Below, in pieces: positions 33,227 through 46,597 of a stretch of DNA of 64,000 nucleotides. The position numbers and the translations under genes are program-made. The notes under the pieces were generated by a model. That model had not been told where the DNA came from, searched no databases, and saw only the letters and a program-made list of their open reading frames with translations. Position 1 is the stretch's first letter. Each line of letters begins with the position of its first letter. Origin of the DNA: a candidate division WOR-3 bacterium (GTDB taxonomy: Bacteria; Hydrothermota; Hydrothermia; LBFQ01); the NCBI GenBank assembly GCA_015492295.1, contig WGFI01000121.1, positions 2,787 to 66,786 on the forward strand, written 5' to 3'.

Positions 33227-36200
33227 TCACCTCCTTATAAATTTATAAACCTTTTTTCCAAGTTTGAGCATATAAACCCCCCTCGGAATACCTTTCAAAT
33301 CCACCTTTACATATCCTTCACCCTTTACACTCATAACTTTCCTTCCCGTTGGGGAATATATGCTCCCAGCTATGCGTCCTTCTTTGAAAATTTCAATGTA
33401 GTTCCTCCCGAAAACCACCTTACTCATCTCCACTTTACGATTCTCCATCACGGATACGAGTATAGGTTCATCGGGTAAGGAATCTACGGGGGAATTCGTG
33501 GCCCACCTGTTATAAAATGGCATCCCCCATTTCACGCTACCTCCGAAATTCCTCCAAGAGTAAAGTTTATTCGCCTCCGTAGGTGCGAATATGTATATGT
33601 ATCCATCATAATTGACGAGGCTCGGCGTTGAATATACGGTGTTGATTCTGAATCTGTTGTGGTCCGAGAGATCAATTGGGAATCCGTAAAGGTCCTTTCT
33701 AAGGTAAGAGTAAGCGTGCAGATAGCTTCTCGCATCCGATATTACAACTTCATCCTTGCCATCCCCGTTTATATCTCCCGTAGTCGCCATCCTACCCCTT
33801 AAAGTGGCATCTTCGGAGAATGTGTCTATAAGAACAAACTGGGAATCAATTCTATAAACCTTCACATAGGGGAATGTTTGATGATAAAAGGCTATGTCAT
33901 CGTTTCCATCGCCATCAAAGTCCAAAGGTAGGCATACACTTAGAGGATTATAAGCCGAGGAATCCACCATAATTATCGTTCCCGATGGGGATATTATGGA
34001 ATTCCTATGCCCGCATGTTATGATTTCAGGGGTACTATCACCGATAAAATCCCATACGAATAACCACCTTGAAGTCCTAACATATATAGGGAATCCCGAC
34101 AATTCGTTCAGGTTTTGATCAAAGATATGGAGGGAATCTCCGAGTTTTACAACTATCTCCCAATTCCCATCACCATCAAAGTCGTAGGTCGCGGGAGGCG
34201 AGATGAAACTCGTATCCGAGAAATCGGCCAACCTGTACTTAACCAGCATTCCGGATGGATTGTAAAGGAATATGCTGCCTTTACGACTTATCACCAGAAT
34301 GTTTAAATTTGATGATGACTTAGTTATGGCGAGGTACAAAGGATAAGGGGTTGAATCGGCATAAGAGGGGAAGTAAGGGTAGGGGACACTCCAAAGTACG
34401 GCACCATCTGAGCTTCGCAGGGCGTGGAGGTAGAATGTGGTTGCGACTATCACTTCAAGTTTTCCATCGGAATTTATATCTGCGACGACAGGATGCGTTT
34501 CAATCCAACTTCCGAGATCCGTCCTCCATATTTCCGAACCGTCAAGCTTTAATGCGTATATCCTATTAAAAGCCGAAGCCGTTATCATCTCAGGTTCCGC
34601 CGTGTTGGTTAGAAGTTGGGCGAATATCGGCCCTGAGGTCTTGGGATATTTGGGAACACTGCTGAAACGGATATATTCAATATCCTTAACGAACCACAAA
34701 CTTGGATTTGGAGATTCAACCGTTGAGAAAACCGTATCACCTTCTATTCCATCCTGAACAACGACCACGGAAAAGTTCTTGGGTGAAAAATCATCGGTTA
34801 GGTATGTGTAATTGGATCCCGTCAATGTATCGTAATTCACGGGTTGCCCATTCACAAAGACCCTCCACGAATACTTTCTACCCGTGATACCCGTATATCC
34901 CCATCTTAGGGTTATACCTCCGTTCAGGGGCTCAGAAGAGTACCAGTCTATTGAGACGGTGGGGGTATCTATCCTTATTCTATATGTACCGAAGAACTTC
35001 GGACCCGCGTACAGGTTAAACCTTATCCACCCACCGTAAGGGAAACTCCCTCGCAGATAATAAACCAAGGTATGATTCGTGAATTCGCCTGGGGCGAGCT
35101 TTGTTATGGTATTACCATACAATGGGGTCAATCCGCTGCTATCAATCACGATCCTCACATCAAATGCCGTATCGCTTCCCGAGTTTGAAACCTCAAACAT
35201 GAGCAAAAGCGTATCGGAATAGTACCTCCATTTTGCCGAATGAAACACGAGTCTCGGACCACCGATCCATACATACGCCGAATCCGTATAACCACCGGCG
35301 TATATCCTTATCTTGGTGAATTTATTCCCATCCGAGAACGGTGATCTTACCACGGTCCAATCAAATCTTACGGAACTTCCAGGTGGTATATTCGCTCCGC
35401 TGGGTAGGGTTATGGGCATCAGATCGGGGGATGTTAGTATGGGAGATACGAAGATGCCTGCTGATCCTATGTTCTTTATCCAGACATGCAAGGTCGCGGT
35501 GTCGTTCGTTGATGTTAAGGTCGCCGAATCTATCTTCAAGGCGTAGTTTGAAAATCCAGCTTTTAAGCTTCCGGTATATATTAGAGAATTTGGATGCCAA
35601 GCGGTCCAATACAGCGTATCGGATCTCTTCACCCTCAAAGTCAGTGTTCCGCTTAGATTGGTGAAACCATATCCTACGACTTCCCTGTCATCCCTCAAAG
35701 AGATCTTAACGAAGGGTTTGGGTGAGAGTGTGGTTGAATCAAGGACGGTAAAGGTTATAAGGGAATCATTTACGGTATAGGATACCATAAGCTTCTGACG
35801 AGCATCGTTATATACCCTAAGCAGGGGATCCCCTACGATATGGTAAGATAGGAGAAGATACCTATAAAGTGTTGAGTATTGCGATACATAGGAATAGGCG
35901 AATTTTCCATAATTCACTATCAATCCTATGTATGGGAAACCGTTGAAACTATTTAAGGAATCGTATATCACCGACCATATACTTGATACGGAGAGTCCAA
36001 AATCCGCCTTGGTTACCCCTACGGATGCCACAGCCTTACCCCTCTTTACGAATTCAAGCCCCAAGGAGTTGGAAAAAGGATCGTTTATAAAGCAACCAAC
36101 CCAACCTACTATGAATTTCGTATTTCCTGTGTTGAGTTCTTCCGTTCTTCTGTAATCAAACGCATCGTATGCGCTCAAAGAATTCCTCGTCATTATTATC

Positions 36201-37471
36201 TTATGGTTTGAATGTCCTATCGCGAATGTCATTATGGGTCTGAAGGAGTTTAAAGTATCCCTAACCGCCGCCGATGGATGCTCACAGATTATCCTTTTCT
36301 GAGACGAGGGTATCCGCGTTAGTTTGTTCATTAAATCCATAGCGAGAAGACAACCATCCGCGCTATCGGGATCCGTGCTATCCCCCCAAAGATTTGAGCC
36401 TATGAAAGCGAATTTGGGCACTGAGAAATCGTTGGAAGTCTCATAGTTTATAACCATCTGTATGTAATTCTGAACCTCTGACGGGCTGTTAAACGGTAAT
36501 CTTCCCACCATTATATCCGGAACCAGATCCGCATAGATGTCTTCCTCGCTACCATCCCATTCATCGTCATTTAGGTTCCAATCCCCATCAAGGGCAGAAT
36601 AATAGTAGTCCGTTAAGAGAAAGTTCCTGAACCAATTTCCATAAATATCGCTTATCGTATCGGTGAAAAGCATCACATTGGTCCTCAAAGGTGGTATGTA
36701 TTGGGCATCCGCGCCTATCAGTAGAGCGGATATTCCCCAATTCTCGTAAGCATACCTCAGAAAGTTCCTAATCTTTTCGGGTATTGAGTTCCCATTGAAG
36801 TTTGAGATCACCCATTCAACCGTGAATATCTCCGTTTTTATTCCCATTGAATTCCTGAAATCGGCCAAAGGTTTCCAGGCATCTTTTAAAGCATCCGTCG
36901 TAAGTATTATATAATCCACCCTATCTTGGGGAACGAAGCTCATAGTCTGATATTCGCGGATTCCGAGAAAGTCAAATGTACCTCTCCATATATCCGGATT
37001 TGAGTACGAGGGTTTTGAAAATCGGTAGGAAAAAGGTTTCTTTATAACATCAAATTCCACCCTCTTGTTGAGAAACACCCTTCCATTCTTGATCTGCAAG
37101 GCGCTTATGATCACAAACGCCACATTATGACCCCTGAAAAACCCCTGATTGCCCACAAATACTATATTCTCCGGATACACATCGGGCAGATGGGTTTTAA
37201 CCTTTCTATCAACGGGCATAGCATAGGTTATATTGTAGTTTATAGGCTCCTGTTCTACGAGCCTCACCCTAATACCTTCAACCCTTTCAGTGGAACTCAG
37301 GTTTATAACGAAAACTTTAAAAGGTATCTCCGGATACCCAGGATAGGTTGAAAATCTCGGCAAATTATCTATGTCTTTAAAACTAACGGAATAACCTATA
37401 AGCCACAACATAATACTGAAATTATAAGGCTGTATCACAAGCACAATAGCAAATTTTAGAGTAATACCCAT
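33227..37471 (-). CDS. gingipain-like (peptidase C25 family) protein with FG-GAP repeats and T9SS C-terminal domain
   Basis: ISALLIGADAQYIPP resembles the C25 core motif (YLLLVGD..IP). At least four FG-GAP/integrin-alpha-like Ca-binding repeats (DINSDGKLEVIV, DFDGDGNWEIVV, DFDGDGNDDIAFY, DINGDGKDEVVISD). C-terminus GVYMLKLGKKVYKFIRR is T9SS CTD-like. Confidence 0.6.
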   Translation of the reverse strand: MGITLKFAIVLVIQPYNFSIMLWLIGYSVSFKDIDNLPRFSTYPGYPEIPFKVFVINLSSTERVEGIRVRLVEQEPINYNITYAMPVDRKVKTHLPDVYPENIVFVGNQGFFRGHNVAFVIISALQIKNGRVFLNKRVEFDVIKKPFSYRFSKPSYSNPDIWRGTFDFLGIREYQTMSFVPQDRVDYIILTTDALKDAWKPLADFRNSMGIKTEIFTVEWVISNFNGNSIPEKIRNFLRYAYENWGISALLIGADAQYIPPLRTNVMLFTDTISDIYGNWFRNFLLTDYYYSALDGDWNLNDDEWDGSEEDIYADLVPDIMVGRLPFNSPSEVQNYIQMVINYETSNDFSVPKFAFIGSNLWGDSTDPDSADGCLLAMDLMNKLTRIPSSQKRIICEHPSAAVRDTLNSFRPIMTFAIGHSNHKIIMTRNSLSAYDAFDYRRTEELNTGNTKFIVGWVGCFINDPFSNSLGLEFVKRGKAVASVGVTKADFGLSVSSIWSVIYDSLNSFNGFPYIGLIVNYGKFAYSYVSQYSTLYRYLLLSYHIVGDPLLRVYNDARQKLMVSYTVNDSLITFTVLDSTTLSPKPFVKISLRDDREVVGYGFTNLSGTLTLRVKRSDTLYWTAWHPNSLIYTGSLKAGFSNYALKIDSATLTSTNDTATLHVWIKNIGSAGIFVSPILTSPDLMPITLPSGANIPPGSSVRFDWTVVRSPFSDGNKFTKIRIYAGGYTDSAYVWIGGPRLVFHSAKWRYYSDTLLLMFEVSNSGSDTAFDVRIVIDSSGLTPLYGNTITKLAPGEFTNHTLVYYLRGSFPYGGWIRFNLYAGPKFFGTYRIRIDTPTVSIDWYSSEPLNGGITLRWGYTGITGRKYSWRVFVNGQPVNYDTLTGSNYTYLTDDFSPKNFSVVVVQDGIEGDTVFSTVESPNPSLWFVKDIEYIRFSSVPKYPKTSGPIFAQLLTNTAEPEMITASAFNRIYALKLDGSEIWRTDLGSWIETHPVVADINSDGKLEVIVATTFYLHALRSSDGAVLWSVPYPYFPSYADSTPYPLYLAITKSSSNLNILVISRKGSIFLYNPSGMLVKYRLADFSDTSFISPPATYDFDGDGNWEIVVKLGDSLHIFDQNLNELSGFPIYVRTSRWLFVWDFIGDSTPEIITCGHRNSIISPSGTIIMVDSSAYNPLSVCLPLDFDGDGNDDIAFYHQTFPYVKVYRIDSQFVLIDTFSEDATLRGRMATTGDINGDGKDEVVISDARSYLHAYSYLRKDLYGFPIDLSDHNRFRINTVYSTPSLVNYDGYIYIFAPTEANKLYSWRNFGGSVKWGMPFYNRWATNSPVDSLPDEPILVSVMENRKVEMSKVVFGRNYIEIFKEGRIAGSIYSPTGRKVMSVKGEGYVKVDLKGIPRGVYMLKLGKKVYKFIRR

Positions 37472-37494
37472 TCAACTGTAAAATAACCGGAATA

Positions 37495-38502
37495 GTGGTG
37501 AATCGTCAAAAGTTCAGTGGTGCGGTTGTATACAGAAGGAAGATCTTTGGGGATCCTGTGATAACCGTATATTACTTGCGGGGGGAGCCGATATATGCGG
37601 AGAGTTTTTTAGTAAAAAGACGGTGGTGGGAAGGTTTGCTATCAGAGGAGGAGGCTGAGAACCAATTGTTCGGTGATATATTTGGGTATGCTTCTAAGGT
37701 ATATAGGGATTCGTATGCTGAGCATCTTAGGAAATATGCCAAAGAAATAATTTCTATCGCCGAGGAGATTATAAAAGATTTTGGTTGGGAACTTGATATT
37801 GAAAAGATTGAGTATTCGGCGGAGGATATATCCTCTATGTTTCATATAAGCCTCGCGGAAAAGCAGGTTATAAACGAGAATGAATCCAAGGAGCGGAAAA
37901 TCGTATCCAACCTCAATGCCCTTGGTTTTTTAACTCTGTACATATCCAGCGAAGATGGTAGATGGAACGATTATGGTTTTTCTAAAACCCTTGGATTTAT
38001 GAAGAGAACGGTGGATGAGATTATGCAGAAAATGAGAGAAACAAACGGTTCCTTTGCTCTTGTATTGCCTTTGTACATAATAGCACATCTGGATACGGAG
38101 GAAAGAAAGGTATGGATCGCGACCAAGGACATTTATAAATTGGCTTTCGCTTTAAACTATCTGAAACCTGCCGAAAATATCTCAGAAAATTTGTTAAAAC
38201 AAATAACATTTCACTGTTGCAAATTTGTTATTTGGAAAACACATGGAGATACCTTTTCTTTATTTGATGGGACAAAGACCCAAATGCTTAACCTCACGGA
38301 TATTATGGAAAAAGTGGATAAATATCTGAAAGACTACGATCGCATTTTAAGAGAAGCCCAATCCCGTATGCCTTCCAATGTGCCTCCGAAGATGAAAGAG
38401 ATGTTACTTCATAAAATGGTAATAAAAAATCCTGATATACGGGATTTCGCGGAGGAATTTGCCTCCCATTTCAGCATAACACTTGACTATGAAAAAAGTT
38501 AA
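37495..38502 (+). CDS. uncharacterised protein, first gene of three-gene operon
   Basis: ORF track. No recognisable motifs. Overlaps the next gene by 20 nt, suggesting translational coupling. Confidence 0.4.
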   Translation: MVNRQKFSGAVVYRRKIFGDPVITVYYLRGEPIYAESFLVKRRWWEGLLSEEEAENQLFGDIFGYASKVYRDSYAEHLRKYAKEIISIAEEIIKDFGWELDIEKIEYSAEDISSMFHISLAEKQVINENESKERKIVSNLNALGFLTLYISSEDGRWNDYGFSKTLGFMKRTVDEIMQKMRETNGSFALVLPLYIIAHLDTEERKVWIATKDIYKLAFALNYLKPAENISENLLKQITFHCCKFVIWKTHGDTFSLFDGTKTQMLNLTDIMEKVDKYLKDYDRILREAQSRMPSNVPPKMKEMLLHKMVIKNPDIRDFAEEFASHFSITLDYEKS

Positions 38503-39748
38503 TTTTAATAGCAGCTTGGATTTTGTGGTTTATGACCCCCTTACGGGTAGAATGTTGGTTGAAGGGATTCCCGTCACTTACCATTGCAATGTGTTTAACC
38601 ACTTTTTTGCGGAAGGTATAAAACTTGCACTTGGTGAGGGGAAAGGTAAGGAAATCATATATCGTTCCTCGGAAATAGCCCATTACCGCCTGTTTCGTAG
38701 AATAAAGGAAAGATACGGATTGAGCGATAAGGAAATCTATACCTTTGGTATGAATTACTTCAAAAGTAGAGGACTGGGCGTTCTTAATGTGGAGGGACGT
38801 GATAAGATATACCTTCTCGCATCCACACATGCCCATACATATTTGAAAGTTTTGAGGTCGTTTTCCAGCGTTCCTATATGTGATGTTGAAAGGGGTTTTG
38901 TGGCCGGTCTTCTTGAGGCTGCACTTGATGTTGAACCGGGAACCATACATGTTGAGGAAACATCGTGCATAGGAAGTGGGGATCCGATATGCAAGATGGA
39001 GGTGCGTATAACCCATGATCGTATAGATACTCCCAATCCCGATTACAGTAAGGTGGTATTTTATCCCGTTGATGGAGCCGAGAAGAGGAAAAATACTATG
39101 GAGAAAATAATGCCTCTGATTCCTGAGCCCGATGACTCCGGTATAATAGCGATAGATTCCGCATTCACAGATATAAAGAAGGTATGGATATCGCAACTTC
39201 CCGGAGAGTACTACGCCTACGCAAACATGAAGGTTGCCGATATATCCGATCCCGAAACGGCGCGCTATACATTAACCTTGGCCGGATTCAACTGCGTTCT
39301 CTTTACATATGTATCAATAGCCCGTAGTCCCATAGGGAACATATTACTTGAGGACGCTGAATCCCAGAAAGATTATTTTGTAAAGCTGGCTGAAATAGGG
39401 AATTATCTGGGTTTTGGCATTTTCAAAGTTGAGGATGTTCATGAGAATGAAGGATGTGAATGCGATATAAGATTGTATAACTTCTATGAAAACAGCTATC
39501 TTGTAGCCCTGAATAGGGAAACGGTATCCTATTTCCTTTTGGGAGCCACACTCGCCCAATCTCTTGCCACTTATTTCTATCGGTATTACGAAAGGGATTC
39601 TCTGGGTCCTGTTAAAAAGATCTTTGAGGAGTTTGATAAAGCGTACGAGAGTATGGATGTAGATATGTCCTTTGATTCTTTGAAGAATGAGCAAAGGGTG
39701 ATTCTAAGTCTCCCCGTTCAAAAGGAAAGACCCCCATCATCCTTATAA
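38483..39748 (+). CDS. uncharacterised protein with V4R-like segment
   Basis: HAHTYLKVL...VERGFVAGLLEAALDV...ETSCIGSGDPICKMEV resembles the V4R/Bet3-like domain signature (GxLEG...ExxCxxxGDxxCxF). Confidence 0.4.
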   Translation: MTMKKVNFNSSLDFVVYDPLTGRMLVEGIPVTYHCNVFNHFFAEGIKLALGEGKGKEIIYRSSEIAHYRLFRRIKERYGLSDKEIYTFGMNYFKSRGLGVLNVEGRDKIYLLASTHAHTYLKVLRSFSSVPICDVERGFVAGLLEAALDVEPGTIHVEETSCIGSGDPICKMEVRITHDRIDTPNPDYSKVVFYPVDGAEKRKNTMEKIMPLIPEPDDSGIIAIDSAFTDIKKVWISQLPGEYYAYANMKVADISDPETARYTLTLAGFNCVLFTYVSIARSPIGNILLEDAESQKDYFVKLAEIGNYLGFGIFKVEDVHENEGCECDIRLYNFYENSYLVALNRETVSYFLLGATLAQSLATYFYRYYERDSLGPVKKIFEEFDKAYESMDVDMSFDSLKNEQRVILSLPVQKERPPSSL

Positions 39749-39755
39749 TACCCTA

Positions 39756-41378
39756 ATGCTCTTCATAGACAGTTTGATGTATCTTGCGGGATTTACAAAT
39801 AGAGATCTCGGTTTTAAGAAAGATCTGTCCTATGAAACCGAATTAAAACCATCGGTGATTATAAATCTTTTAAATAACCCTCTGCGTGCGTTTCACTTCG
39901 TTGATTCTCTATCCAAGGAGTACAGAGAGTTTTCCTATGTGAAAGTCCTGAATCTCGTTTGGTGGGAAAAGTTTAGAAAGATAAAAGTATCAAACCGTAT
40001 GACCTACAAGGATAGCGTAATAGGGCATTTTATTGATGTCCTGCACTGCTACAATTACTTTAAAGATAGGGCATTCTCAAGGTTAAAACCTGAATTCATC
40101 AGTAAAGTTAAAACACCACTTAAAAAGTTATGGGATACGGTTGAAACTTCCGATACGCTTACGAAGGATGAGTATATGAAGTTGGCGAGAACCGTCTTAT
40201 GGAACCATCTTATGAATTCCCTTCTATGCCTCTTGAATGTTGATACATCAAAGGTTCCGAGATTAGAGGATACCGCAACTTACATATACAAAACTTTATA
40301 CGGTGATATAGCAATAGGTGGCGTAGGGAACGATATATATAAAGGGAATTTCGTTGCTATCTTGGATTTTGGTGGCGATGATGTTTATTATGTTGATAGC
40401 GAGGTTCTGATAGTTGATCTTTCCGGAGATGATGTTTATTATGGGAATGTTGGTTCGGGTTTCTTTGGCTCTTCCGCACTTTTTGACTTCAAAGGTGATG
40501 ATAAGTATATGTGCGGCGATATGTCATGCGCAAGCGGTATAATGGGATTCGGTTTCATATACGATGGTGAAGGGAACGACATCTATTACGGTGGTTATCA
40601 TTCCATCGGTGCAGGAACCTTCGGGGGAGGATTCTTGATAGACATGTCAGGCGATGATATATACAAGAGTGTTATTTACGGTCAGGGATTTGCTGGAACC
40701 TATGGCGTGGGTCTTCTTTTGGACGGATCCGGGAATGATGTATATACCATAGGATACGGACCTATACATGAGCCTCTGTATAAAACTCAACGGGAGGGTC
40801 TTGGTCAAGGGTTCAGCATAGGAATGAGGGAGGATTTTGGAGGAGGAATAGGAATACTTATGGATTTTAAAGGGAACGATGTCTATAACGCTGGAACCTA
40901 TGCCCAGGGTGTATCTTACTGGTATTCTTTGGGTATTCTGTACGATGGTGAAGGGGACGATAGATATATATGTACTCAATATTGTCAGGGCGCCGGAATC
41001 CATATATCCGTTGGGTTGCTTATGGATATATCGGGGGATGATATGTATTTTGCATTGAACGGCCCTTCCATAGGTGCGGCGCATGATCTCTCCGTGGGTT
41101 TCCTATACGATTCTCTTGGAAATGATTTCCATTACACCTATGGGGGATTAGGTATGGGATTAACGAATTCAACGGGTATTTTCGTGGATGTTTATGGAGA
41201 TGATAAGTACTATGTTATGCAATGTGATATATCCTTGGGTGGTGCCAATATTAAAAGGGAAATGGGTGGTATAGGTATGTTTGTTGATGCCCATGGGAAG
41301 GATGTTTATGGGTGTGATGTTAAAAATGGTGAAAGGTGGGTGAGGAGGATGTGGGGTATTGGATGGGATGGTGAGTAA
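39756..41378 (+). CDS. tandem-repeat protein with 12 copies of a ~26-aa G(D/N)DxY repeat; predicted beta-solenoid, possibly Ca-binding
   Basis: Repeats FGGDDVYY, LSGDDVYY, FKGDDKYM, GEGNDIYY, MSGDDIYK, GSGNDVYT, FKGNDVYN, GEGDDRYI, ISGDDMYF, SLGNDFHY, VYGDDKYY, AHGKDVYG at regular spacing. ~190-aa helical N-terminal domain. No signal peptide. Confidence 0.5.
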   Translation: MLFIDSLMYLAGFTNRDLGFKKDLSYETELKPSVIINLLNNPLRAFHFVDSLSKEYREFSYVKVLNLVWWEKFRKIKVSNRMTYKDSVIGHFIDVLHCYNYFKDRAFSRLKPEFISKVKTPLKKLWDTVETSDTLTKDEYMKLARTVLWNHLMNSLLCLLNVDTSKVPRLEDTATYIYKTLYGDIAIGGVGNDIYKGNFVAILDFGGDDVYYVDSEVLIVDLSGDDVYYGNVGSGFFGSSALFDFKGDDKYMCGDMSCASGIMGFGFIYDGEGNDIYYGGYHSIGAGTFGGGFLIDMSGDDIYKSVIYGQGFAGTYGVGLLLDGSGNDVYTIGYGPIHEPLYKTQREGLGQGFSIGMREDFGGGIGILMDFKGNDVYNAGTYAQGVSYWYSLGILYDGEGDDRYICTQYCQGAGIHISVGLLMDISGDDMYFALNGPSIGAAHDLSVGFLYDSLGNDFHYTYGGLGMGLTNSTGIFVDVYGDDKYYVMQCDISLGGANIKREMGGIGMFVDAHGKDVYGCDVKNGERWVRRMWGIGWDGE

Positions 41379-41544: not shown

Positions 41545-41841
41545 ATGAGGAGAAGGCCACAAGGCAGGGAATATATACCTCTTGATCCTTCGCAGCAGGA
41601 TAAGTCGTTAAATCAAATAGCTGAAATAACGATCAAAAAAATCTCATCACTCCAAGATTCGGAAGATTTGAGAAAATCCACTTTTGATGAGGAGAAAAAT
41701 ATTGATGAATCTTTAAACGAGATAGCTGAAACTTTAAAAGATTTGAACTCAAAAGAGGAAGAATTAAGAAAATGTGTGATGATTGGATTTATAATCCTCC
41801 TGCTGGTGTTGTTGCTGTTGTTTATACTATACCATCGTTGA
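41545..41841 (+). CDS. small tail-anchored coiled-coil membrane protein
   Basis: Start ATGAGGAGAAGG lies immediately after conserved element A. C-terminal TM IGFIILLLVLLLLFILY. Confidence 0.35.
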   Translation: MRRRPQGREYIPLDPSQQDKSLNQIAEITIKKISSLQDSEDLRKSTFDEEKNIDESLNEIAETLKDLNSKEEELRKCVMIGFIILLLVLLLLFILYHR

Positions 41842-41873
41842 AAGTGTGCAGTATTATCAATCCCATAACAAGG

Positions 41874-42065
41874 ATGAAAGCGTTGAATGGCCTTAATATC
41901 TTTGCAGTTCCAAAAAGGCATAAAGAACTGATTGACAAAATTCAAAACCCAGACCTAAAAATCATAGCTTATATCCTCCTTTATCAAAACGAAAAACTTG
42001 ACGATATAAGCAAAGATATTGCGGAGATAAAGGATTTAATGGAGAGCGAGGTATGGAATAGGTGA
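41874..42065 (+). CDS. small uncharacterised ORF; the same frame continues protein-like past two stops to 42233
   Basis: ORF track 41772..42065 with an internal Met at 41874. See findings. Confidence 0.2.
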   Translation: MKALNGLNIFAVPKRHKELIDKIQNPDLKIIAYILLYQNEKLDDISKDIAEIKDLMESEVWNR

Positions 42066-42258: not shown

Positions 42259-45200
42259 TTATTCTGACAGTCTTAGATTTATGAGTTTATGCGTAGGATC
42301 AAGCATCACCTTTTCAGGTTTGAAAGTCAAAGGAATTATGAGTTTTCCGAAGCTCTCTCTTATCCTTATTCTCCTCAACTCCTTAACCTTTCCGTCCTTA
42401 TAGAAACCGATCTCAACAACATCGTTGGGTTTCAATTCGTACCTATTACCTACGCTATCATACCGAAACTTCCTAAACTCATACTCTATAAAGGCTTTCC
42501 CGTTTTCCCACCGAAACTTTTTCACACCAAAATCGTAAATGATTATGTCCTCGTACCAACCTTTTATCTGTTCCAAAAGGGTATCAGGGACTATTTCGTA
42601 GAGCATGCTGAGGAAATCCTTTGATGATGGGTAAGGTGAATGTTTATAAGAGTACTTATTCACAAACTCCCTTAGAAGACTATCAAACCTTTCCTTTCCA
42701 ATATAATCGGCGGTTGAATAATTTATCAATCCACCCTTGTTGTAGTGTATATAGGCCTGACCCTCGCTGAGATACAGTGGGGTTTCCTTGTATGTTTCCA
42801 TCTTTCTCCCTTTTAAATACCTGTCTATCTCATGTTTGAGGAACTTTGATGCATCACCGTATATATTTTCCATGACCCTTATACCCGTATATTCGGCGAA
42901 GGATTCGGAGAGGAAATGTATTCCCTTTGAGAATCTTGATATTACCTGATGAGCCCACCATTGATGCCCGACCTCATGGGATGTTACGAAAGTGGCGTAA
43001 TCTATATCCCCTTCTTTTACCTTCGCGAGGAAGCCTATATCCTCCGAAAAGGGTATAAGGGTTGCGAGGGATTGTGCAAATCTTCCAAATCTCGGAAATT
43101 CAACTATACGGAGGGTCTTGTGAGGATACGGTGAAAATCTTTCGGAAAATTTCAAACTCTCCTTCATACCTTTCAGTATTCTCTTTACATTGAAATCATG
43201 GGAAGGAAGGTAATAAATGTACAATTTCACATCGCCATAATTATCGGATACTACGGAGTATTTGCCACTTACAAAGGCGTATATGTGGAGTATCGGTTTC
43301 AAGCTCTTGTATTTAAAGAACCTCCTATTCCCCTCCTCCCAACTTCCGACCAACTCGCCTGGTGCCAAAGCAACCTGATTCGCGGATGTGGATACTACGG
43401 CCTCAAAATTCACCCAATCGGCATCGTTGATCATGGTTATATTTGAGATTCTCGGATCGTCAATATCGGGATATGCATCCTTTGGAGGTAGGCCATACTT
43501 TTTTCTCAAATTCCTGTTTTTAATCTCCCTATCCCGCATATACCCAAAAATGGGATAATTCCCCGACAGAAATGTGCCGTTTTCAAAAACCCCACACCTC
43601 GTATCAAAACCGTCAATTATACCCTTGGGTTCGCACGATATTTTAAACTCCACATAGAATCTATCCCCCGGTTTCAAAGGCTTCACAAATTCGTATATTA
43701 CAACACCCAACTCCTTATCCTTATGAATCTCTTTAACAGGTACGCTAAACCTTATAAATTCAAGTTTTTTATGAGTTTCGCTTTTGGCAGGTATATTCAC
43801 GAACAATCTACTTATGGCACGCGAGATTTTATTTTCTACCCAGAACTTTCCATAGGTATATACGCTTCTCCTCTTGGGATATATATCAACTCTCAGAAAG
43901 ACATCCGTTATCTTTGGCAGGGGCATATATTCGTACTTTGAGTAAAGCTTCTCATATTTTACCCTCATTCTTCTACTTTCCTCCCTTGATAGGAAACGAT
44001 TGAACACATAATGGTTATACCAAAGATATATCCCACTTACTACGAACACTACGAACGAAAGGGCCAAAACGGCCCCGTTTTTAATATTGATGGAGGAAAG
44101 CATCTTTTTGAGTCTCCCTTTAAAACCCGTAAAGTTTTCGGTGTATAAAAGGAAAGCCAAAGTTATGAATATCAAAGATAATCCTCCCCAATATACTCTG
44201 TACGCCAATAAAGTCTTTATGAAATGCCCATAACCGAAAAAGTCCGAATACTCTATGAGGGGATAAAAAGGGAATCGTATTATACTGTATTGGAATATCT
44301 TCGTTTCCAAGTTTGAAATGAACAGAATTCCTAAGAGGTATCCCATAAATAGCATATGCCCTACGAATTTATTCCTTACTATGGAATGAATCAGCAGGGA
44401 TAATGTTGAGAGATACACGATGGTTAAATAAGGTTCCAGCATAAGCCTTTTGATGTACAGGAATATCTCAAACCTGTAATATCCATTTATCGCTTGATAT
44501 ACGACTCCGCATATAATATACACAAAAATCAGAATACCTAAGAAAATCAGCATTCCTATGAACCTACCTAAGAGCAGGTATGGGAACATGGGTGAGGTGC
44601 CCAACATCTCAGAGGTTAGATTATCTTTATCCCTGTTTATGATCTCTCCCGCAATCAGGGTGGTCAGAATCATATAGAACAGAAGAACATTTCCTTGAAT
44701 AACACTTGTAAGTAAAGAGGTCGTGGGATATACGGGTGTATCATAAATGATATTTACACCGTAGAGGTTAGGTATGAGAACGATTATGGAAACAAGGATT
44801 ATACCGAGTATCGCGTAGGATCTCCTCAAATATTTTATCTCAAATAGGGCGGTGTGGATGATGAATTTTAAGATGTTAAAGGAGGGGACATACTTTGGTT
44901 TTTCAAGATAAACCTTAATTTCCTCTTGTACGAGTTTCCTGCCTTTCTCCTCCTTCTCTTTTAAGTTAAAAAACCTATAAGATACGAACAGGATGACAAT
45001 ACCAACGAGAAGCCATAGGATTCTATTGAATGTTATAGACATAGACCAAGGAATACTTTGCGTGTTCAGCTGGGCAGATGTCCAGTATTTTATAGTTTCG
45101 CTGAATGCGGAAAATCCGAAAGGATCAAGATATATTGATAGTTTCTCAAGTTTTAATATACCCATAAGCGTTGATGAAACTATCCATAAGGCGAAGAATA

Positions 45201-45747
45201 ATACACCTCCGAGGTAGGCTATGAACTCCTTTCTGGTTGCGGCGGTGATGCCGAAGAACAAGGATGAGAACAGAAATGTGTTTGGTATTCCGAACTGTAA
45301 TATTGGATTCAGATAGTGATAAAGGTTCATAGGACCGAGTTTTTCCTTATCCACCCAAGGAGCAAAATTGCCAAGAATCTGGCCAATAAGTATGAAAATG
45401 AGTATGGCTAATGAGATTACAAAGCTTCCTACGAGTCTCCCGAAGAAGTATTCGCTTTTCCTTATAGGAGATGTGAATATAAACTCGTAGGTCTTGTCCC
45501 TTATATCCCTATAAGCGGAGTTGGATGCAACATACGAGATTATGAATATGCCGAACATATAGGATACGAGGAAGGAGAAGGTTATCATATAGGGAGAGTT
45601 TTTTAAGATGTTAGTTTCCGAAGCTCCAAGTCTTATAAAGTCGGAAGTTATGAGTAAGAAACCCATAAGAGACAGTATAAAACTTAGAAAATAAAACGCC
45701 CTCGTTTTCAGCCAAAATTTTACCTCAAACAGTATGATACCCAACAT
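42259..45747 (-). CDS. fused ABC-2 family permease / M1 family aminopeptidase
   Basis: ~12 TM helices in the N-terminal 650 aa. C-terminal gluzincin motif VTSHEVGHQWWAH plus downstream E (LSESFAEY), giving HExxH-x18-E of the M1 family. Confidence 0.7.
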   Translation of the reverse strand: MLGIILFEVKFWLKTRAFYFLSFILSLMGFLLITSDFIRLGASETNILKNSPYMITFSFLVSYMFGIFIISYVASNSAYRDIRDKTYEFIFTSPIRKSEYFFGRLVGSFVISLAILIFILIGQILGNFAPWVDKEKLGPMNLYHYLNPILQFGIPNTFLFSSLFFGITAATRKEFIAYLGGVLFFALWIVSSTLMGILKLEKLSIYLDPFGFSAFSETIKYWTSAQLNTQSIPWSMSITFNRILWLLVGIVILFVSYRFFNLKEKEEKGRKLVQEEIKVYLEKPKYVPSFNILKFIIHTALFEIKYLRRSYAILGIILVSIIVLIPNLYGVNIIYDTPVYPTTSLLTSVIQGNVLLFYMILTTLIAGEIINRDKDNLTSEMLGTSPMFPYLLLGRFIGMLIFLGILIFVYIICGVVYQAINGYYRFEIFLYIKRLMLEPYLTIVYLSTLSLLIHSIVRNKFVGHMLFMGYLLGILFISNLETKIFQYSIIRFPFYPLIEYSDFFGYGHFIKTLLAYRVYWGGLSLIFITLAFLLYTENFTGFKGRLKKMLSSINIKNGAVLALSFVVFVVSGIYLWYNHYVFNRFLSREESRRMRVKYEKLYSKYEYMPLPKITDVFLRVDIYPKRRSVYTYGKFWVENKISRAISRLFVNIPAKSETHKKLEFIRFSVPVKEIHKDKELGVVIYEFVKPLKPGDRFYVEFKISCEPKGIIDGFDTRCGVFENGTFLSGNYPIFGYMRDREIKNRNLRKKYGLPPKDAYPDIDDPRISNITMINDADWVNFEAVVSTSANQVALAPGELVGSWEEGNRRFFKYKSLKPILHIYAFVSGKYSVVSDNYGDVKLYIYYLPSHDFNVKRILKGMKESLKFSERFSPYPHKTLRIVEFPRFGRFAQSLATLIPFSEDIGFLAKVKEGDIDYATFVTSHEVGHQWWAHQVISRFSKGIHFLSESFAEYTGIRVMENIYGDASKFLKHEIDRYLKGRKMETYKETPLYLSEGQAYIHYNKGGLINYSTADYIGKERFDSLLREFVNKYSYKHSPYPSSKDFLSMLYEIVPDTLLEQIKGWYEDIIIYDFGVKKFRWENGKAFIEYEFRKFRYDSVGNRYELKPNDVVEIGFYKDGKVKELRRIRIRESFGKLIIPLTFKPEKVMLDPTHKLINLRLSE

Positions 45748-46597
45748 GGTAAAAGTACGCCTCTTCTAAGGAGGGGGCAACTGGCTCCCAGGAATCGCGT
45801 AAAGGTTTATCGCTATACACCGATACGAACATCCTACCTCCTTTTAAATGAACATTAAGGATCCGATAATTCTCTTTTATAGTTTCAATCTCCTCCTTTG
45901 ATATTTCTCTGCGAAATACCTTCCCTTTAAGCGAGGATATTATTTCATCCGGTTTTCCCCTAACTATGATTCTCCCATCTTTTATTATCGCCATATCATC
46001 GCACAGCTCTTCAACATCACCCACTATATGGGTTGATAGTATAACCAACCTATTCTCACCCAGTTCGGATAGAAGATTTAAGAATCTCCTCCTTTCCGCC
46101 GGATCCAATCCTGCCGTTGGTTCATCCACTATTAAAACCTCCGGATTCCCAAGAAGCGCAACCGCTATTCCAAACCTCTGCTTCATCCCTCCCGAAAATT
46201 CCCCGAGTTTCCTTTTTCTATCCTTATAAAGATTTACCCTATCCAAGAGATAATCAACCAATCTTTTTCTCTCTTTTGATGAGGTGAAACCTTTCAAGTA
46301 AGCGAAATGTTCAAGCATTTCATAGGCCGATACATTCTTATAAACCCCAAACTCCTGAGGCAAATATCCGAGAACCCTCTTAAACCTTTCAGGTTCTTTA
46401 AGAATATTTATATCCTTCCATATAACCTCTCCCTTATCAGGTTCAAGTAAGGTCGCTATTATCCGCATTAATGTTGTTTTTCCTGCACCGTTTGGCCCTA
46501 AGAGGCCGAACATACCATAGGAGATTTCAAGGTTTATATTCTCCAAAGCTCTGATACCTCCCGGATATGTCTTTGAAAGACCTTTTACGATCAGCAT
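45725..46597 (-). CDS. ABC transporter ATP-binding protein
   Basis: Walker A GLLGPNGAGKTT. Signature LSGGMKQR. Walker B LIVDEPT. Overlaps the permease start (translational coupling). Confidence 0.85.
   Translation of the reverse strand: MLIVKGLSKTYPGGIRALENINLEISYGMFGLLGPNGAGKTTLMRIIATLLEPDKGEVIWKDINILKEPERFKRVLGYLPQEFGVYKNVSAYEMLEHFAYLKGFTSSKERKRLVDYLLDRVNLYKDRKRKLGEFSGGMKQRFGIAVALLGNPEVLIVDEPTAGLDPAERRRFLNLLSELGENRLVILSTHIVGDVEELCDDMAIIKDGRIIVRGKPDEIISSLKGKVFRREISKEEIETIKENYRILNVHLKGGRMFVSVYSDKPLRDSWEPVAPSLEEAYFYHVGYHTV

Follow-up and report, generated by a model that had tools for sequence, protein, structure and literature searches.

What is the protein behind a gene whose product returns again and again to the same acidic turn, and which of its residues may do the work? 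The gene in question lies at 39756..41378 on the forward strand of the window, the whole analysed stretch of 64,000 nucleotides from one contig (WGFI01000121.1) of a candidate division WOR-3 bacterium. It is an open reading frame of 540 amino acids plus stop that begins with ATG. An N-terminal extension was ruled out by an in-frame stop at 39705-39707 and by the lack of any start codon between this stop and position 39756. The protein is identical to the ORF product (P0001) on 3-4 MAG contigs, and tblastn revealed no paralog of the gene elsewhere in the window. The repeats are ancient; no DNA tandem repeat was detected in the gene, and the 13-residue repeat cores have mean identities of 44 % on the protein and 55 % on the DNA level.

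Repeat motif and spacing

Thirteen occurrences of the motif G[DNK]D.[YFH] were counted in the protein, against a mean of 0.2 and a maximum of 3 in 5,000 shuffles; a previous reading made from the sequence only had counted twelve. The motif glycines are located at aa 191, 207, 224, 247, 273, 299, 326, 373, 400, 427, 455, 481 and 514, corresponding to intervals of 16, 17, 23, 26, 26, 27, 47, 27, 27, 28, 26 and 33 residues, most of them 26-28. A period of about 26 residues, as initially proposed, therefore describes the middle of the array, but not its short first rungs and not rung 7 with an insertion of 20 residues. The supposedly invariant core G-(D/N)-D-x-Y was found in most copies, but one copy reads GKD and another ends in H. 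The core belongs to a longer unit, G-h-L-h-D-x-x-G-[ND]-D-x-Y, in which the successive positions D, G, N/D, D and Y reached frequencies of 0.88, 0.96, 0.79 (N 0.48, D 0.31), 0.94 and 0.96 over the 13 rungs of 58 relatives. Glycine-rich segments had been noted behind each repeat; in rungs 3-11 such segments, of the type (Q/S)G-x-G, form the third side. Glycine makes up about 20 % of the solenoid, which contains 49 D/E versus 17 K/R, a net charge of about -32. A literature search on the repeat motif yielded nothing relevant.

Predicted structure

The whole chain was modelled by AlphaFold2 with a pLDDT of 94.3 and a pTM of 0.94, presenting regular strand triplets over aa 175-540 with the rungs aligned in register (register and DSSP). 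The model strongly supports a helical N-terminal domain followed by a three-sided β-solenoid of 13 rungs. The expectation of a periodic β-solenoid with one acidic turn per rung was thus borne out in the prediction; of the disorder considered as the other outcome there was no sign, since no segment had a pLDDT below 50 and hence nothing is predicted to be disordered.

The N-terminal domain (aa 1-172, 39756..40271; this and the following features all on the forward strand) is all-helical, with DSSP helices from aa 2 to 160. Its helical nature had been recognized from the sequence, but the boundary is at about aa 172 rather than at about 190. Modelled alone, the domain had a pLDDT of 82 and a pTM of 0.70. 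It opens at the family-conserved motif L..LGL...DL.F.KD and contains an invariant P42 (alignment A3). Its probable role is to cap the solenoid at the N-terminal side. Rungs 1-3 (aa 184-239, 40305..40472) are short, with coil lengths of 16, 17 and 23 residues according to register and DSSP; rung 1 reads IGGVGNDIY, literally the RTX nonapeptide GGxGxDxUx. Regular coils of 26-27 residues form rungs 4-6 (aa 240-318, 40473..40709), each with the sequence G-h-h-h-D-x-x-G-(N/D)-D-x-Y ahead of a glycine-rich third side. Rung 7 (aa 319-365, 40710..40850) extends over 47 residues and includes a conserved insertion; its conserved positions are H-x-P340-L341, Q351-G352-F, G356 and R358. In the 58 relatives, conservation reaches 90 % or more at eight non-motif positions of this rung. 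The conservation hot-spot in alignments A1, A2 and A3 is on rungs 8-11 (aa 366-473, 40851..41174). Rungs 12-13 and an irregular C-terminal cap (aa 474-540, 41175..41375) retain R501, W528 and a G-x-G-x-D538 ending; this end of the solenoid is an irregular, conserved W/G-rich hairpin.

A β-helical rod in a clade without signal peptide, thus compatible with a cytoplasmic location, recalls polymerising or cytoskeletal β-helices such as bactofilin, and a polymerising scaffold had been among the early suggestions. We consider such a role very improbable, since both solenoid ends look capped and leave no free end-to-end repeat surface: the helical N-domain is packed confidently on the rod (pTM 0.94), and the C-terminus is irregular and conserved. 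In addition, bactofilin (DUF583) gave no match, and most relatives appear to be exported.

Searches against known families and structures

The protein matched no Pfam or NCBIfam family at E<=1 and no family of PADLOC (anti-phage defence) or PHROGs (phage) at E<=0.01. A Pfam search with the solenoid domains of the 58 relatives at E<=10 gave no significant match; the hits were scattered and at chance level, among them DUF6329, hit by 12 domains with E values of 0.054 or more, and the SBBP repeat, hit by 9 domains with E values of 0.043 or more. A known Pfam repeat family, named in the sequence-only reading as a finding that would refute it, was thus detected neither for the protein nor for its relatives. 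A single-sequence search of the PDB returned nothing. The profile of the full family matched in the PDB only through the HEAT region of long relatives (alphaRep and PBS-lyase chains), and a solenoid-only profile had zero matches at E<=10. Foldseek with the whole model revealed no significant PDB match; the best one was the ice-binding adhesin MpAFP (3p4g) with E=0.6, a sequence identity of 16 % and TM values of 0.27 normalised to the query and 0.44 normalised to the target. The weak, non-significant neighbours are Ca2+-loaded solenoids: MpAFP 3p4g, CyaA RTX block V and RsaA. Against BFVD, again no match was significant, the best being a phage 'Haemolysin-type calcium-binding repeat' protein (E=0.12). 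The N-domain alone had no Foldseek match in the PDB (best E 2.3).

A classical RTX protein, exported by type I secretion and folded as a Ca2+ β-roll, was weighed as an alternative. The latter half of an RTX nonapeptide is similar to the turn G-(N/D)-D-x-(aromatic), rung 1 matches the nonapeptide GGxGxDxUx perfectly, rungs 1-2 with 16-17 residues come near the 18-residue β-roll turn, and the absence of an N-terminal signal peptide from the window protein is shared with RTX proteins (PMC6891781). Nevertheless, membership in the RTX family is effectively refuted. PF00353 matched neither the protein (E<=1) nor any of the 58 solenoid domains (E<=10), the profile search of the PDB found no RTX chain, and the protein has one motif per three-sided coil of 26-28 residues instead of two per 18 residues. 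RTX repeats are tandem nonapeptides XUXGGXGXD in which position 4 disfavours any side chain, positions 5 and 7 have to be Gly and position 9 has to be Asp (PMC6891781). Only rung 1 follows this rule. Family-wide, the equivalents of Gly-7 and Asp-9 have frequencies of 0.96 and 0.94, but only 15 % of the rungs have Gly at the equivalent of Gly-5, and 88 % have Asp at position 4. Moreover, most relatives appear to carry N-terminal Sec signal peptides. The annotated surrounding genes include no MFP or TolC of the T1SS type; the neighbouring ABC genes encode an ABC-2 permease with a fused M1 peptidase. The initial judgement that the protein fits neither classical RTX nor Rhs proteins was supported.

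Family distribution, architecture and export

By a family profile search, members were collected in 4,430 clusters of 50 % identity. Species-representative genomes contain no fewer than 585 loci. The family occurs in WOR-3, Cloacimonadota, Calditrichota and allied lineages, phyla that are poorly understood and mostly uncultured. It is unnamed, uncharacterised and without a solved structure. The window protein is a clear member: the family profile aligned with E=1e-215 over profile positions 20-583, and all family invariants are present, namely P42, R358, Y388/W389, H416, H443-D444 and N471 (alignments A1-A3).

The common layout is a helical N-domain, the β-solenoid and an optional HEAT array. 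These C-terminal HEAT arrays, the sole fused domain seen, are present in most relatives and confined to the longer forms; the window protein has no HEAT repeats and stops at the solenoid cap. A strongly hydrophobic N-terminus was observed in 188 of 258 representatives, and some signal peptides are canonical. From these N-termini, most relatives appear to be exported via a signal peptide. The ORF product of 39756-41378 has none, as had been stated before, which is true for the protein itself and not for most of its relatives; the missing signal peptide is a clade-specific and not a family trait. The WOR-3/Caldipriscus-like clade of the window protein has lost both the signal peptide and the HEAT arm. 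This speaks against a fold that depends on Ca2+, which one would hardly expect in the cytoplasm: the window protein is without signal peptide and has no room for an upstream extension.

The conserved arc on rungs 7-11

Among the 58 relatives, 34 non-motif positions are at least 90 % conserved, 26 of them on rungs 7-11. Q384, Y388, W389, Y409, Q411, H416, H443, D444, N471 and S472 on rungs 8-11 are invariant or nearly so (A1, A2, A3), and the arc residues remain invariant in paralogs at 37-41 % identity. An exact ladder W389/H416/H443/N471 with fixed offset was abandoned, because an indel of one residue in rung 10 shifts the register; what is retained is a cluster on the same arc. We infer from this conservation that the invariants of rungs 7-11 mark a candidate ligand-binding or catalytic site. 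The working surface would then be the arc with R358, Y388, W389, Y409, Q411, H416, H443, D444 and N471 and not the repeat itself. It may form a groove that binds, and possibly converts, an extended ligand, and a polymer of the cell envelope or the extracellular space would be the most plausible candidate.

In right-handed β-helix enzymes acting on carbohydrates, the active site is made of residues from successive rungs on a single face. Invariant residues of the present family (His, His-Asp, Asn, Arg, Trp and Tyr) likewise lie on successive rungs and, together with the apparent export of most family members, would suit an enzyme built on a β-helix: either a polysaccharide lyase, epimerase or hydrolase of the pectate-lyase, AlgG or PL6 type, or a mononuclear metalloenzyme with H416, H443 and D444 plus N471 and Q411 as centre and W389, Y388 and R358 holding the substrate. 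However, neither sequence nor fold matched any β-helix enzyme family; the PL6 lyase 6qps among the very weak Foldseek matches (E=9.7) carries no evidential weight. Conserved glycan-metabolism genes were not found nearby either. We regard this assignment as unlikely.

The neighbourhood was assessed by clustering 903 ORFs from 86 loci. A conserved operon was rejected, as no partner was conserved among the neighbours of the 86 loci. The sole widely recurring neighbour cluster (17 loci) comprises large secreted proteins of the C25/FG-GAP/Por-tail type, whose position is not fixed. Close neighbours on the same strand were heterogeneous by Pfam, with M6 peptidase in 5 of 42, TPK in 4 of 42 and M42 peptidase in 4 of 39. 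In close relatives, the genes between the paralogs are housekeeping genes (GluRS, RuvB, aminotransferase). A link to the upstream V4R-like gene was rejected as well, because this arrangement is restricted to the same species. Overall, no conserved clue to the ligand came from neighbours, fused enzymatic domains or annotated relatives.

A proposed metal-stabilised solenoid

The best explanation, to which we assign a probability of about 0.5, is a cation-stabilised solenoid, RTX-like yet outside the RTX family, with a functional arc on rungs 7-11. Each rung would contribute a turn D-x-x-G-(N/D)-D followed by Tyr, and the 13 stacked turns would create two Asp ladders and one Asn/Asp ladder with a spacing of about 4.8 Å. 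In RTX proteins, the G-x-D turns are half-sites for Ca2+, and carboxylates 4.8 Å apart destabilise the fold without Ca2+ (PMC6891781). Region IV of MpAFP is a Ca2+-bound right-handed β-helix of thirteen RTX-like repeats of 19 amino acids (PMC3492233). By analogy to these two structures, the stack should require for its stability one row of about 12 divalent cations, of which Ca2+ is the most likely; the bound metal would stiffen the rod or control its folding. The protein of most lineages is probably exported and would offer its C-terminal HEAT arm to partner proteins.

The same turns can be pictured without metal. The Asp and Asn residues of D-x-x-G-(N/D)-D would do no more than cap backbone amides, as in Asx turns or Asn ladders, and the protein would be a rigid scaffold, either an inert spacer or a platform for protein interactions via N-domain and HEAT arm, with the rung 7-11 residues as a structural or docking patch. 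The RTX geometry is indeed not simply transferable to this turn, because the equivalent of Gly-5 is mostly not Gly and position 4 is Asp. AlphaFold2 is confident on the fold without ions, the clade without signal peptide suggests a cytoplasmic setting low in Ca2+, and the only fusion partner ever seen, HEAT, is a protein-interaction module. On the other hand, 12-13 stacked pairs of invariant carboxylates in a domain with this negative net charge would be hard to stabilise without counter-ions, and the nearest structural neighbours, although non-significant, are all Ca2+-loaded. A metal-free scaffold deserves consideration, but is in our opinion not probable.

In its boldest form, the reading as a metal-stabilised solenoid would define a new structural class: a three-sided solenoid with coils of 26-28 residues, zipped by about 12 Ca2+ through a non-RTX turn D-x-x-G-(N/D)-D, and equipped with an unprecedented His/His-Asp/Asn/Arg/Trp active centre that in WOR-3, Cloacimonadota, Calditrichota and related uncultured phyla would serve one conserved reaction, either the processing of envelope polymers or a metal-dependent one. 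The pair of paralogs without signal peptide and HEAT arm in Caldipriscus-like thermophiles would then be a cytoplasmic re-use of the scaffold. This extended proposal is speculative, and we consider it distinctly unlikely as a whole.

Significance

Proteins with the shared core number thousands and are listed in databases as 'hypothetical' or, after their accessory tail, as 'HEAT repeat protein'. With the domain defined, a family model of its own, as a Pfam or DUF entry, could be built and the annotation corrected. The catalogue of β-solenoids would gain a new coil geometry and turn chemistry, of use in repeat-protein design and for Ca2+-switchable scaffolds. For experiments, the target is one small conserved site on rungs 7-11 of a protein that is presumably an envelope component of WOR-3 and Cloacimonadota. 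The family alone resolves no long-standing question, and its function is proposed by inference.

Comparison with known systems

For most relatives, 'HEAT repeat domain-containing protein' is the sole annotation, since their C-terminal 250-350 amino acids match models of HEAT and PBS-lyase HEAT-like proteins (PF13646, PF03130, PF02985). The core shared by the family is, however, the N-domain plus the solenoid, which this annotation does not touch, and the window protein lacks the HEAT part.

Pectate-lyase-like β-helix enzymes, e.g., the AlgG/AlgE epimerases and PL6, have a three-sided coil of about 22-27 residues. The coil size and the invariants of rungs 7-11 would fit the logic of these enzymes. 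Their families are not known for an acidic turn that recurs along the coils. Matches to Beta_helix, NosD, Pectate_lyase or CASH models were absent, the profile matched none of them in the PDB, and Foldseek gave nothing below E=0.6.

With the RTX β-roll (PF00353; CyaA block V, PDB 5cvw; alkaline protease), the protein shares an acidic, Gly/Asp-rich solenoid with predicted Asp stacks about 4.8 Å apart, and its G-(N/D)-D-x-Y is equivalent to positions 7-9 plus 1-2 of the RTX repeat. The β-roll is a two-sided coil of 18 residues with Ca2+ at both edges, whereas the coil described here has three strand segments and a single motif. Further differences are the extra invariant Asp at position 4 and the apparent use of N-terminal signal peptides by most relatives instead of a C-terminal T1SS signal.

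Region IV of MpAFP from Marinomonas primoryensis differs by its shorter coil, 19 against 26-28 residues, and by a Thr/Asx ice-binding face that has no counterpart here. It is embedded in a 1.5-MDa T1SS adhesin of a psychrophile, in contrast to the thermophilic or anaerobic lineage of the present protein. Both, however, are built of thirteen coils with one RTX-like turn per coil, and the G-x-G-N-D turn of MpAFP holds one row of cations on a single side of the helix, the arrangement that we propose by analogy for the D-x-x-G-(N/D)-D solenoid.

The gene and its repeats

The gene at 39756-41378 on the + strand encodes, as the sequence-only reading had placed it, a protein of 540 aa that belongs to a large unnamed family. 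A longer N-terminus is ruled out by an in-frame stop codon at 39705-39707 and the lack of a start codon between this stop and the ATG at 39756. The motif G[DNK]D.[YFH] occurred 13 times from aa 191 to 514, while in 5,000 shuffles of the protein it appeared 0.2 times on average and at most 3 times. Thus the proposed tandem array was upheld, but not its description as twelve repeats of about 26 residues: thirteen were present, and the intervals were, in order, 16, 17, 23, 26, 26, 27, 47, 27, 27, 28, 26 and 33 residues. Tandem Repeats Finder detected no repeat in the solenoid region on the DNA level, and the 13-residue repeat cores shared on average 44 % identity as protein and 55 % as DNA; judged by these sequences, the repeats are old. 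The solenoid consists of ~20 % Gly, 11 % Asp and 9 % Tyr, with 49 acidic versus 17 basic residues. Two cysteine pairs were observed, C253/C258 in rung (solenoid coil) 4 (C-x4-C, 40512-40529) and C406/C410 in rung 9 (C-x3-C, 40971-40985). Both are kept within the signal-peptide-less clade and missing in exported relatives. Being five rungs apart, they cannot make up one site; each may be a disulfide within its rung or a small metal site that is peculiar to the thermophilic clade.

Predicted structure

AlphaFold2, supplied with a 76-sequence family alignment (A1), predicted the solenoid fold with high confidence (mean pLDDT 94.3, pTM 0.94). No segment fell below a pLDDT of 50, hence the protein is not predicted to be disordered. 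The model bears out the earlier structural interpretation: aa 2-160 form the helical domain expected ahead of the repeats, and from aa 175 to the C-terminus a regular run of short strands forms a beta-solenoid. Its in-register unit is G-h-L-h-D / x-x-G-(N/D)-D / x-Y-x-x, completed by a variable, Gly-rich third side. In each unit a long strand leads into the acidic turn, after which come a second strand and the third side, which contains one short strand. The first three rungs are short (16, 17 and 23 residues), the coils of rungs 4-6 and 8-11 comprise 26-28 residues each, rung 7 carries a conserved insertion of 20 residues, and the irregular rungs 12-13 end in a conserved W/G-rich hairpin. In the model, caps seem to close both ends of the solenoid, which speaks against end-to-end polymerisation and so against the polymerising scaffold considered before.

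A large family without a named counterpart

Pfam and NCBIfam gave no match for the protein at E<=1, and the solenoid domains of 58 relatives, scanned at E<=10, revealed no significant family; HemolysinCabind and Beta_helix families were not among their matches. A known Pfam repeat family was therefore not recovered. PADLOC and PHROGs returned nothing for the protein, and neither the single protein nor a solenoid-only profile found a PDB sequence; the full-family profile matched only HEAT proteins, via the C-terminal tails of long relatives. Foldseek against the PDB gave nothing below E=0.6, the top matches being the Ca2+-bound MpAFP beta-helix (3p4g; TM 0.27 by query, 0.44 by target), CyaA RTX blocks and RsaA. 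The best BFVD match was a phage 'Haemolysin-type calcium-binding repeat' protein (E=0.12). The N-domain modelled alone (pLDDT 82) had no PDB match (best E 2.3). The coil geometry and turn motif of the family match nothing in Pfam or PDB.

A word-indexed search retrieved >2,000 relatives, and an exhaustive search with a profile built from HEAT-less members (alignment A3) yielded 4,430 representative clusters at E<=1e-3 (2,504 at E<=1e-30); at least 585 family loci lie in species-representative genomes. The source genomes, nearly all MAGs, are from WOR-3 (including Caldipriscus, Hydrothermus and Stahlbacteria), Cloacimonadota, Calditrichota, Edwardsbacteria, Coatesbacteria and Sumerlaeota. Public names are solely 'hypothetical protein' or 'HEAT repeat domain-containing protein'. 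Two NCBI MAGs contain a protein identical to that of the window; among named relatives, an ortholog from Candidatus Caldipriscus is the nearest (58 % identity). The usual layout is a signal peptide, the helical N-domain and the solenoid, followed in many members by a HEAT array of 250-350 aa; no other fused domain was seen. In a crude hydrophobicity test 188 of 258 representatives had a signal-peptide-like N-terminus, and some members have canonical signal peptides (e.g., P0106, P0110). In the clade of the window protein (P0002-P0014, 53-88 % identity) the chain begins right with the conserved motif of the N-domain, and there is no HEAT array. Genomes of the closest orthologs encode a second paralog of ~550 aa (37-44 % identity over the solenoid), likewise without signal peptide or HEAT, at a distance of 2-7 kb with housekeeping genes between (GluRS, aminotransferase, RuvB, Sbt). 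It is located on the contigs L001 (9331-10983, -), L007 (11867-13519), L009 (7018-8670), L010 (14671-16323) and L011 (13356-15011), and is absent from the 64-kb window.

Genomic neighbourhood

Upstream on the + strand lie a 335-aa ORF without family match (37495-38502) and a 421-aa ORF (38483-39748) with sub-threshold matches to V4R (PF02830, E=1.3e-6) and DUF5943. The 20-bp overlap of these ORFs, the 7-bp gap to the solenoid gene and a promoter-like site at 37455-37484 suggest that the three genes probably form one transcription unit. This arrangement is limited to contigs of the same species (L004-L006). No neighbour was conserved with the family across 86 loci, and 81 close neighbours on the same strand were heterogeneous in their Pfam content; the context is thus uninformative on function. 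The sole widely recurring cluster comprised large secreted C25/FG-GAP/Por-tail-type proteins, in 17 of the 86 loci at varying positions, which probably reflects the abundance of such cargo in these phyla. The window encodes a similar 1,414-aa protein (33227-37471, -) with a Peptidase_C25 (gingipain-like) domain, FG-GAP and beta-propeller repeats. In a WOR-3 sub-lineage (L012, L015, L022, L025, L034, L038) a ~530-aa protein is repeatedly encoded directly upstream of the family member. Among 42 upstream neighbours scanned, five had Peptidase_M6 (immune inhibitor A-like) and three CBM9 domains; a DUF5689 protein is encoded upstream in two loci, adjoining in L008 and one gene further in L001. The synteny with the ~530-aa, Peptidase_M6 and DUF5689 proteins is lineage-specific, not family-wide.

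Downstream of the solenoid gene are two small overlapping ORFs on the + strand (41545-41841 and 41772-42065). The product of one has 98 aa, charged towards its N-terminus and ending in a hydrophobic tail; the other, of 97 aa, is the ORF called as a gene in same-species contigs. Neither could be assigned to a family. A 1,162-aa fusion (42259-45747, -) combines ABC-2-type permease domains with a C-terminal M1 peptidase domain, and an ABC ATPase gene (45725-46597, -) overlaps it from upstream; such a pairing of transporter and aminopeptidase is unusual.

Conserved arc and acidic turns

Rungs 7-11 (aa 319-473) contain 26 of the 34 non-motif positions with >=90 % conservation, including P340, L341, Q351, R358, Q384, Y388, W389, Y409, Q411, H416, H443, D444, N471 and S472; these rungs' conserved positions are unchanged even in paralogs at 37-41 % identity. 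We read this arc, on its conservation, as a candidate functional site that would serve as a binding groove or perhaps as a catalytic or metal centre. Speculatively, its ligand could be an envelope or extracellular polymer, which would fit the export signals in the family and the precedent of beta-helices.

The family-wide turn is D(0.88)-x-x-G(0.96)-[N 0.48 / D 0.31]-D(0.94)-x-Y(0.96), and 13 stacked turns would create Asp ladders at beta-sheet spacing. In RTX proteins G-x-D turns are Ca2+ half-sites, and without Ca2+ the fold is unstable owing to carboxylates 4.8 A apart (PMC6891781); region IV of MpAFP is a natural example of a one-sided cation row per coil (PMC3492233). By analogy, we infer that a single row of ~12 divalent cations would line the solenoid. 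This inference is weakened by the absence of an export signal from the window protein and by a turn that differs from canonical RTX: in the family, just 15 % of rungs have Gly at the Gly-5 equivalent, and Asp occupies position 4. Although the protein failed the RTX membership tests, in agreement with the earlier view that it is not a classical RTX protein, it resembles the Ca2+-loaded RTX-type solenoids.
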